64,000 nt of DNA from Escherichia coli. GTDB taxonomy: Bacteria > Pseudomonadota > Gammaproteobacteria > Enterobacterales > Enterobacteriaceae. The stretch lies in assembly GCF_002854065.1 (NCBI RefSeq), contig NZ_CP024147.1, one strand, 5' to 3'. Position numbers and translations under genes: made by a program. This document shows positions 37,136-37,572 of this stretch, piece after piece (the first letter of the stretch is position 1; every line of letters starts with the position of its first letter). The notes under the pieces are model-generated. The model was given only the letters and a program-made list of their open reading frames with translations. It did not search any database and had not been told where the DNA came from.

Positions 37136-37572
37136 TTAGGGAAGCGCAACGTTCAGAACTCCCCGCGATCCTCGAACTGTGGCTGGAAAGTACAACCTGG
37201 GGCCATCCCTTTATAAAAGCGAATTACTGGCGCGAGTGCATTCCGCTGGTGCGGGATGCCTATCTTGCCAACGCACAAAACTGGGTCTGGGAAGAAGACA
37301 GTAAGCTTCTCGGTTTTGTCAGCATTATGGAAGGCCGATTTCTGGCAGCGATGTTTGTCGCACCGAAGGCCGTCAGGCGCGGTATTGGTAAGGCGCTGAT
37401 GCAGTATGTGCAACAGCGCCATCCCCATCTGATGCTGGAGGTTTATCAAAAAAATCAACCGGCGATAGATTTTTACCAGGCGCAGGGTTTTCACATTGTC
37501 GATTGCGCATGGCAGGATGAAACCCAACTACCCACCTGGATTATGAGCTGGCCGGTGGTTCAAACGCTGTAA
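37132..37572 (+). CDS. yiaC: GNAT-family N-acetyltransferase YiaC
   Basis: 146-aa [24 protein letters not shown]... with acetyl-CoA-binding motif [13 protein letters not shown] overlap with tag. Confidence 0.85.

Follow-up and report, generated by a model that had tools for sequence, protein, structure and literature searches.

Convergent overlapping genes are well represented in Escherichia coli, where 75 such pairs have been reported (Huvet & Stumpf 2014, PMC4161906). Only convergent overlaps can be both long and real, and conservation of most long overlaps that prove true does not reach beyond very closely related species (Pallejà et al. 2008, PMC2478687). At the level of RNA, many of the entries tabulated by Adams et al. 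2021 (PMC7815308) represent Rho-dependent termination of read-through transcripts that run antisense to a convergent gene, and double-stranded RNA, counted at 1 read per million (RPM) or more, arises from 87% of genes (Huang et al. 2020, PMC7373196).

Here we analyze the convergent genes yiaC and bisC, which overlap tail to tail in a 64,000-nucleotide stretch of E. coli DNA (contig NZ_CP024147.1; hereafter, the window). The overlap itself is already known from the reference annotation, from a published list of excludons, and from a published table of RNase III duplexes, and the published Rho termination regions likewise include one that lies antisense to bisC shortly after the end of yiaC. The present analysis adds the finding that both stop codons are real, the conservation of the arrangement across genera, a two-way constraint on wobble sites, and a collation of the transcript data. 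We consider it likely that this is a genuine and old tail-to-tail overlap of two protein-coding genes, passive rather than a regulatory switch.

Results

yiaC and bisC Share 32 Base Pairs at Their 3′ Ends

The ORF list and the annotation agree on two genes at this locus. yiaC occupies 37132..37572 on the plus strand and encodes a GNAT lysine acetyltransferase of 146 amino acids, with an ATG start and a TAA stop codon at 37570-37572. bisC occupies 37541..39874 on the minus strand and encodes a biotin sulfoxide reductase of 777 amino acids, a molybdoenzyme of the DMSO reductase family (by annotation and by Pfam on orthologs), with a TTG start and a TAA stop codon that reads from 37543 to 37541. 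BisC repairs oxidised biotin and methionine. The ORF boundaries define a 32-bp segment, 37541..37572, that is coding on both strands. The first-pass annotation of the window had described this tail-to-tail overlap of yiaC (plus) and bisC (minus) at 37541-37572, and the ORF list and RefSeq bear out its names, strands, and coordinates. On the plus strand, the shared segment specifies YiaC I137-L146 plus the stop codon, and on the minus strand it specifies BisC L768-S777 plus the stop codon. The two frames are phased such that first codon positions face each other, and the second positions of either gene face the third positions of its partner.

Both ORFs are genuine genes of recognisable families, as judged from Pfam, PDB homologues, and RefSeq names. 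Orthologs of YiaC match Acetyltransf_1/7/10 (GNAT) and those of BisC match Molybdopterin and Molydop_binding, and the PDB homologues are YjaB for YiaC (E = 2e-13) and TorZ for BisC (E = 5e-43). An identical 32-bp overlap appears in the RefSeq/PGAP annotation of O157:H7 TR01, K-12 DH1, and MG1655, with MG1655 coordinates of 3713652..3714092 for yiaC and 3714061..3716394 for bisC. When an 801-nt query around the overlap was used, O157:H7 TR01 was 100% identical to the window over the full query, and the overlap region was found in 5421 of 5426 complete E. coli genomes. Nearly all of bisC is gone in E. coli BE104 (NZ_CP040643.1, 3973-4218), where the match to the window breaks off 8 nt beyond the end of yiaC and the annotation records what is left of bisC, a short N-terminal piece, as a pseudogene. 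Since yiaC is intact in BE104, the deletion took the BisC tail and retained the shared 32 bp.

The upstream neighbor of yiaC is tag, encoding 3-methyladenine DNA glycosylase I (36572..37135, plus strand; O157 RefSeq annotation). yiaC is polycistronic with tag, and YiaC is upregulated in oxidative stress (Christensen 2018, PMC6199490). The yiaC start and the tag stop share 4 nt in an ATGA junction at 37132..37135 on the plus strand, as seen in the sequence, in the annotation, and in the same study (PMC6199490). yiaC shares bases with its neighbors at both ends, with tag at the 5′ end and with bisC at the 3′ end. An ATGA start/stop junction is the usual layout for translational coupling. The overlap of tag with yiaC is 20–23 nt in the genes as called at the Citrobacter, Enterobacter, Kosakonia, and Pseudescherichia loci. 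At the far end of bisC, the rare TTG start codon (39872-39874, minus strand) has a CAGGAG Shine-Dalgarno sequence 8 nt upstream, and every genus with a readable junction has a TTG at the corresponding codon.

Eight convergent gene pairs lie in the window, and yiaC/bisC is the only one that overlaps. The next closest pair, yhjV (plus) and dppF (minus) at 19885-19915, has 29 nt between its stop codons and is also on the published MG1655 excludon list (PMC12288877). A long polar fimbriae operon (lpfA1, lpfB, lpfC, a fimbrial gene, and lpfE; about 28457-33940) is located between eptB and yhjX; in K-12 DH1 eptB directly adjoins yhjX, and the operon is an island specific to the strain, located 3 kb upstream of the overlap. 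Elsewhere in the window, the cellulose biosynthesis gene bcsG (16275-17955) is frameshifted according to the annotation of the RefSeq record that matches the window.

Both Stop Codons Hold Their Position across Genera

We compared ortholog loci from E. albertii, E. whittamii, and other Escherichia, from two Citrobacter-type genomes, Enterobacter ludwigii, Kosakonia, and Pseudescherichia, and from the Logan contig SRR10254146. A YiaC search of genome contigs returned five Escherichia loci only, and the other genera were reached by protein search followed by retrieval of the encoding contigs. In all ortholog loci (13 sequences from at least six genera), the bisC stop lies at one aligned position relative to yiaC. 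The overlap measures 32 bp in 12 of the 13 sequences and is retained at this length in Escherichia, Citrobacter, Enterobacter, Pseudescherichia, and the one Logan metagenome contig; in Kosakonia it is 38 bp, and yiaC there is two codons longer. The first-pass annotation had left both stop codons to be checked by ortholog alignment, and this alignment confirms them, each at a constant aligned position.

The most distant yiaC-bisC locus is that of the Logan SRR10254146 contig (1978-2578), in which a Gp49/HTH toxin-antitoxin-like pair and eut genes replace yhjX/eptB. The contig retains the yhjY-tag-yiaC-bisC-yiaD core together with the 32-bp overlap.

The protein ends encoded by the overlap are conserved as well. 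YiaC orthologs are 146–148 amino acids long and share the C-terminal pattern PTWIMxWxxxQTx, in which P134, T135, W136, I137, M138, W140, Q144, and T145 are invariant in 20 orthologs. The BisC C-terminal pattern, LTAF[DE]PPA[SN][SP], is conserved across the ortholog loci. Furthermore, the BisC tail aligns with the extreme C-terminus of solved DMSO/TMAO reductases (1EU1, 4DMR, and 7L5I); in 1EU1 the aligned segment is the terminal strand VTVTVFDTPK, which ends at residue 778 of 780. YiaC, at 146 amino acids, is comparable to its solved paralog YjaB, at 147, and six residues follow the conserved xMxW motif in YiaC as compared with 1–12 in distant family members. These alignments indicate that neither C-terminus is a recent run-on and that both lengths are typical of their families. 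Recent extension of a tail by loss of a stop codon was considered and rejected, because BisC ends where solved DMSO reductases end and the YiaC tail falls within the range of 1–12 residues.

Each Reading Frame Limits Variation in the Other

Synonymous sites are unusually conserved within the shared segment. Eight of the nine yiaC wobble sites in the overlap are invariant, as compared with 15 of 135 elsewhere in the gene (p = 1e-6), and four of the nine bisC wobble sites in the overlap are invariant, as compared with 23 of 240 elsewhere (p = 0.01). These counts are based on the eight lineages that align without gaps, a nine-lineage version gives the same picture, and the conservation statistics as a whole draw on 8–9 lineages and 26–32 sites.

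The variation that does occur in the overlap is mostly at yiaC second positions, which are the bisC wobble positions; it alters YiaC residues 141–143 and 146 and leaves the BisC sequence T-A-F-D/E-P-P unchanged. Residues I137, M138, and W140 of YiaC, from the conserved I-M-x-W, face the variable end of BisC (A-S/N-S/P-stop), and the conserved T-A-F-D/E-P-P of BisC faces the variable tail of YiaC. The constrained end of each protein is therefore mostly opposite the looser end of its partner, and both frames are under selection. The bisC stop codon illustrates this exchange: its change from TAA to TGA in three genera is the synonymous change from ATT to ATC at I137 of YiaC. Within the overlap, each frame freezes the synonymous sites of the other.

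Sense and Antisense RNAs Pair within the Overlap

Because of the geometry of the two genes, their transcripts overlap by at least 32 nt when both are transcribed. The first-pass annotation had held that the transcripts must overlap, and published K-12 data agree. First, ExcludonFinder places yiaC-bisC among 165 convergent excludons in at least 50% of 58 MG1655 transcriptomes (PMC12288877). Second, a 21-bp duplex labeled 'bisC yiaC', with strands AUUAUGAGCUGGCCGGUGGUU (184 reads) and CCACCGGCCAGCUCAUAAUCC (90 reads), is listed by Huang et al. 2020 (PMC7373196, Table S3). Both strands of this duplex were captured by p19 and carry 2-nt overhangs, and the duplex is listed as an in vivo RNase III product in E. 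coli K-12 (PMC7373196). We mapped the duplex to 37540..37560 on both strands, its sole exact match in the window, within the overlap. The duplex directly demonstrates pairing of sense and antisense RNAs within the overlap and their cleavage by RNase III. Its abundance is low: at 2.2 and 1.1 RPM, the two strands are close to the listing floor of 1 (PMC7373196). All of the transcript evidence comes from K-12 data sets and not from the O157:H7 strain to which the window belongs; K-12 has one difference from the window in the 60 nt around the overlap, and the two sequences are near-identical. The K-12 literature thus documents two features of an excludon, namely transcript overlap in vivo, to which plus-strand coverage up to a Rho region 252 nt inside bisC (PMC7815308) also attests, and processing of the duplex by RNase III.

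A second 21-bp RNase III duplex (261 and 170 reads in K-12; PMC7373196, Table S3) maps deep in bisC, at 38649-38669 of the window, with one mismatch to it. This duplex points to antisense RNA some 1.1 kb inside bisC, farther along than the mapped Rho region described below; such RNA could come from read-through or from a separate antisense promoter.

These data permit a regulatory reading, in which convergent transcription and RNase III cleavage make yiaC and bisC mutually antagonistic and the overlap is kept for that antagonism. More tag-yiaC transcription would then mean less BisC, and vice versa. The pair is indeed on the published MG1655 excludome list (PMC12288877), but the criterion for listing is common to 165 convergent pairs. 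Likewise, the RNase III duplex sits exactly in the overlap (PMC7373196), yet its abundance is near the 1 RPM reporting floor in a data set in which 87% of genes yield dsRNA. Also in its favor, the plus-strand transcript extends some 250 nt or more into bisC (PMC7815308) and the second duplex lies about 1.1 kb inside bisC (PMC7373196). Against it, a literature search found no reciprocal yiaC/bisC expression data. Functional coupling also predicts the exact conservation seen across genera; the gene arrangement is so conserved, but the dual protein constraint fully accounts for it. Moreover, antagonism between YiaC and BisC has no obvious logic, given the upregulation of YiaC in oxidative stress and the repair role of BisC. 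On balance, we regard mutual antagonism as unlikely and a genuine regulatory role for the overlap as quite unlikely. The more specific proposal, that the overlap is an excludon embedded in coding sequence whose selected coupling tunes the balance of the acyltransferase YiaC and of BisC (for example, in oxidative stress) and is not passive genome compaction, seems to us very doubtful.

The yiaC Transcript Ends, and the bisC Transcript Probably Ends, inside the Partner Gene

A consensus scan for intrinsic terminators over 36000-40500 returned seven sites against 5.2 expected from shuffled sequences, none of them convincing. The sole terminator-like site near the overlap is a weak hairpin on the plus strand at 37635-37657, within bisC codons, with nine pairs and the tail ATCTTTGGTC, a poor U tract. 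This hairpin is partly conserved, with one pair showing compensatory changes in the alignment fold, and its z-score is 0.32. As a functional intrinsic terminator it was rejected because it is weak, has a poor U tract, and lies inside bisC codons. Downstream of either stop codon, the RNA is predicted to fold no more stably than its shuffled counterparts (z-scores of 0.32 and 0.96), alignment folds of both strands yielded no structure supported by covariation, and an Rfam scan of 36000-40500 at E ≤ 1 returned no family. The arrangement that marks a bidirectional intrinsic terminator, a GC-rich stem-loop with flanking A/U tracts at the gene boundary, is absent from the locus.

On the plus strand, termination has been assigned to Rho. 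Adams et al. 2021 (PMC7815308, Suppl. file 2) report a Rho-dependent termination region at MG1655 3714344 on the plus strand, classed as antisense to bisC, with a Rho score of 7.3 (p = 5.5e-14). Coverage upstream and downstream of this region is 90 and 23 without bicyclomycin and 60 and 112 with bicyclomycin (PMC7815308). By coordinate conversion, MG1655 3714344 falls within bisC, 252 nt beyond the end of yiaC, and corresponds to position 37824 of the window; this position is approximate, as the Rho regions of that study are defined with 800-nt coverage windows (PMC7815308).

The RNA downstream of the yiaC stop is a C-rich, G-poor, rut-like stretch (37573..37860, plus strand) that leads into the Rho region peak at about 37824. 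In 78-nt windows over 37573-37858 the plus-strand C/G ratio is 1.05–2.0, except for one window at 0.95. Rho loading needs C-rich, G-poor untranslated RNA. The tag-yiaC transcript accordingly shows both features sought for Rho-dependent termination, read-through raised by bicyclomycin (K-12 literature) and C-rich RNA upstream (computed here).

For the 3′ end of bisC, the tables of Adams et al., including those from Term-seq, hold no minus-strand yiaC entry and no coordinate within MG1655 3713500-3714099; nor are there Term-seq 3′ ends for yiaC near the overlap among these tables. Past the end of bisC, the minus-strand RNA has only a moderate excess of C, the C/G ratio being 1.25–1.9 over about 37449-37242, and the bisC transcript probably ends through Rho or through decay inside the antisense of yiaC/tag. 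The first-pass annotation had argued that the overlap leaves no room for a terminator on either strand. This stands for an intergenic intrinsic terminator, of which we found no convincing example, but not for termination in general, which in the case of yiaC occurs within the partner gene, through Rho 252 nt past its stop.

Head-on collision of RNA polymerases, rather than Rho, could in principle set both 3′ ends near the overlap. Such collisions help to terminate transcription in both directions at convergent E. coli pairs, but they have to be positioned by a stem-loop that the nascent RNA forms between the gene boundaries (Wang et al., bioRxiv 10.1101/2022.10.23.513370), and no such stem-loop was found here. 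In addition, expression of both genes appears to be low (90 reads per 800 nt), which should make it rare for polymerases to converge on the locus at the same time, and the read-through on the plus strand is sensitive to bicyclomycin (PMC7815308). We consider collision-driven termination at this locus highly improbable.

Discussion

The observations above are most simply accommodated by a passive overlap of two old protein-coding genes. With neither an intergenic gap nor a convincing intrinsic terminator, transcripts end within the partner gene: in K-12, the tag-yiaC transcript runs about 250 nt into the antisense of bisC and is stopped there by Rho after the C-rich stretch, and the bisC transcript probably ends inside yiaC/tag. 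Sense and antisense RNAs pair across the overlap and are cut by RNase III at low levels. The overlap itself has probably been kept because altering a stop codon or a frame on either side would impair YiaC or BisC. At the levels of expression recorded to date, antisense effects would then be minor and incidental, a non-regulatory view that we argue from the low abundance of the duplex (1–2 RPM). The potential antisense interference raised in the first-pass annotation is a plausible idea; it is physically real at this locus, and its consequence is probably small.

The weakest alternative, that the overlap is an annotation artefact in which one gene ends earlier and no coding overlap exists, has a negligible probability and is already effectively refuted: many long (>60 bp) convergent overlaps are misannotations caused by 3′ extension (Pallejà et al. 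2008, PMC2478687), but the 32 bp shared here fall below that problematic length class, both stops hold a constant position in all orthologs, both tails are conserved as protein and are of family-typical length by comparison with solved structures and distant homologs, and each frame holds the wobble sites of the other fixed. The first-pass annotation had recognized that an earlier true stop for either gene would undo the overlap; ortholog alignment, solved homologues, and wobble-site constraint all speak against one.

In practical terms, the yiaC/bisC overlap is a well-documented and ordinary feature of a well-described class and has little importance apart from keeping the record correct. Deleting or tagging the 3′ end of yiaC or of bisC will also change the partner gene, unless the design takes the shared 32 bp into account.

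Of the described systems, conserved convergent overlapping pairs resemble this locus most directly, as they have in common with it shared 3′ coding ends, conservation across species, and suppressed synonymous sites. Nothing essential sets yiaC/bisC apart from this class, and its 32 bp are well below the class of overlaps longer than 60 bp in which artefacts dominate. The overlap withstands the ortholog-length test recommended in PMC2478687, and in contrast to the long true overlaps of Pallejà et al. 2008, its conservation spans several genera of Enterobacteriaceae.

Excludons are like yiaC-bisC in that the transcripts overlap, here in most MG1655 transcriptomes, and form a duplex that is cut by RNase III. 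In classical excludons, however, the overlap arises from long UTRs, whereas at yiaC-bisC the coding regions themselves overlap. Excludons are also defined by mutually exclusive expression, and the likeness of yiaC-bisC to them lies in transcript overlap and RNase III processing.

As regards termination, the locus shares with other cases of Rho termination antisense to a convergent downstream gene a bicyclomycin-sensitive region and a preceding stretch in which C exceeds G. It differs from the read-through class in that the untranslated RNA on which Rho depends starts only beyond the yiaC stop, which is itself located within bisC, such that the entire 3′ UTR runs antisense to a coding region. 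The setting of convergent genes with a very short or absent spacer is shared with bidirectional intrinsic terminators. Unlike them, yiaC/bisC does without an A/U-flanked stem-loop, its fold energies being no better than those of shuffled sequences, and the plus-strand transcript instead ends at a Rho region within the partner gene.
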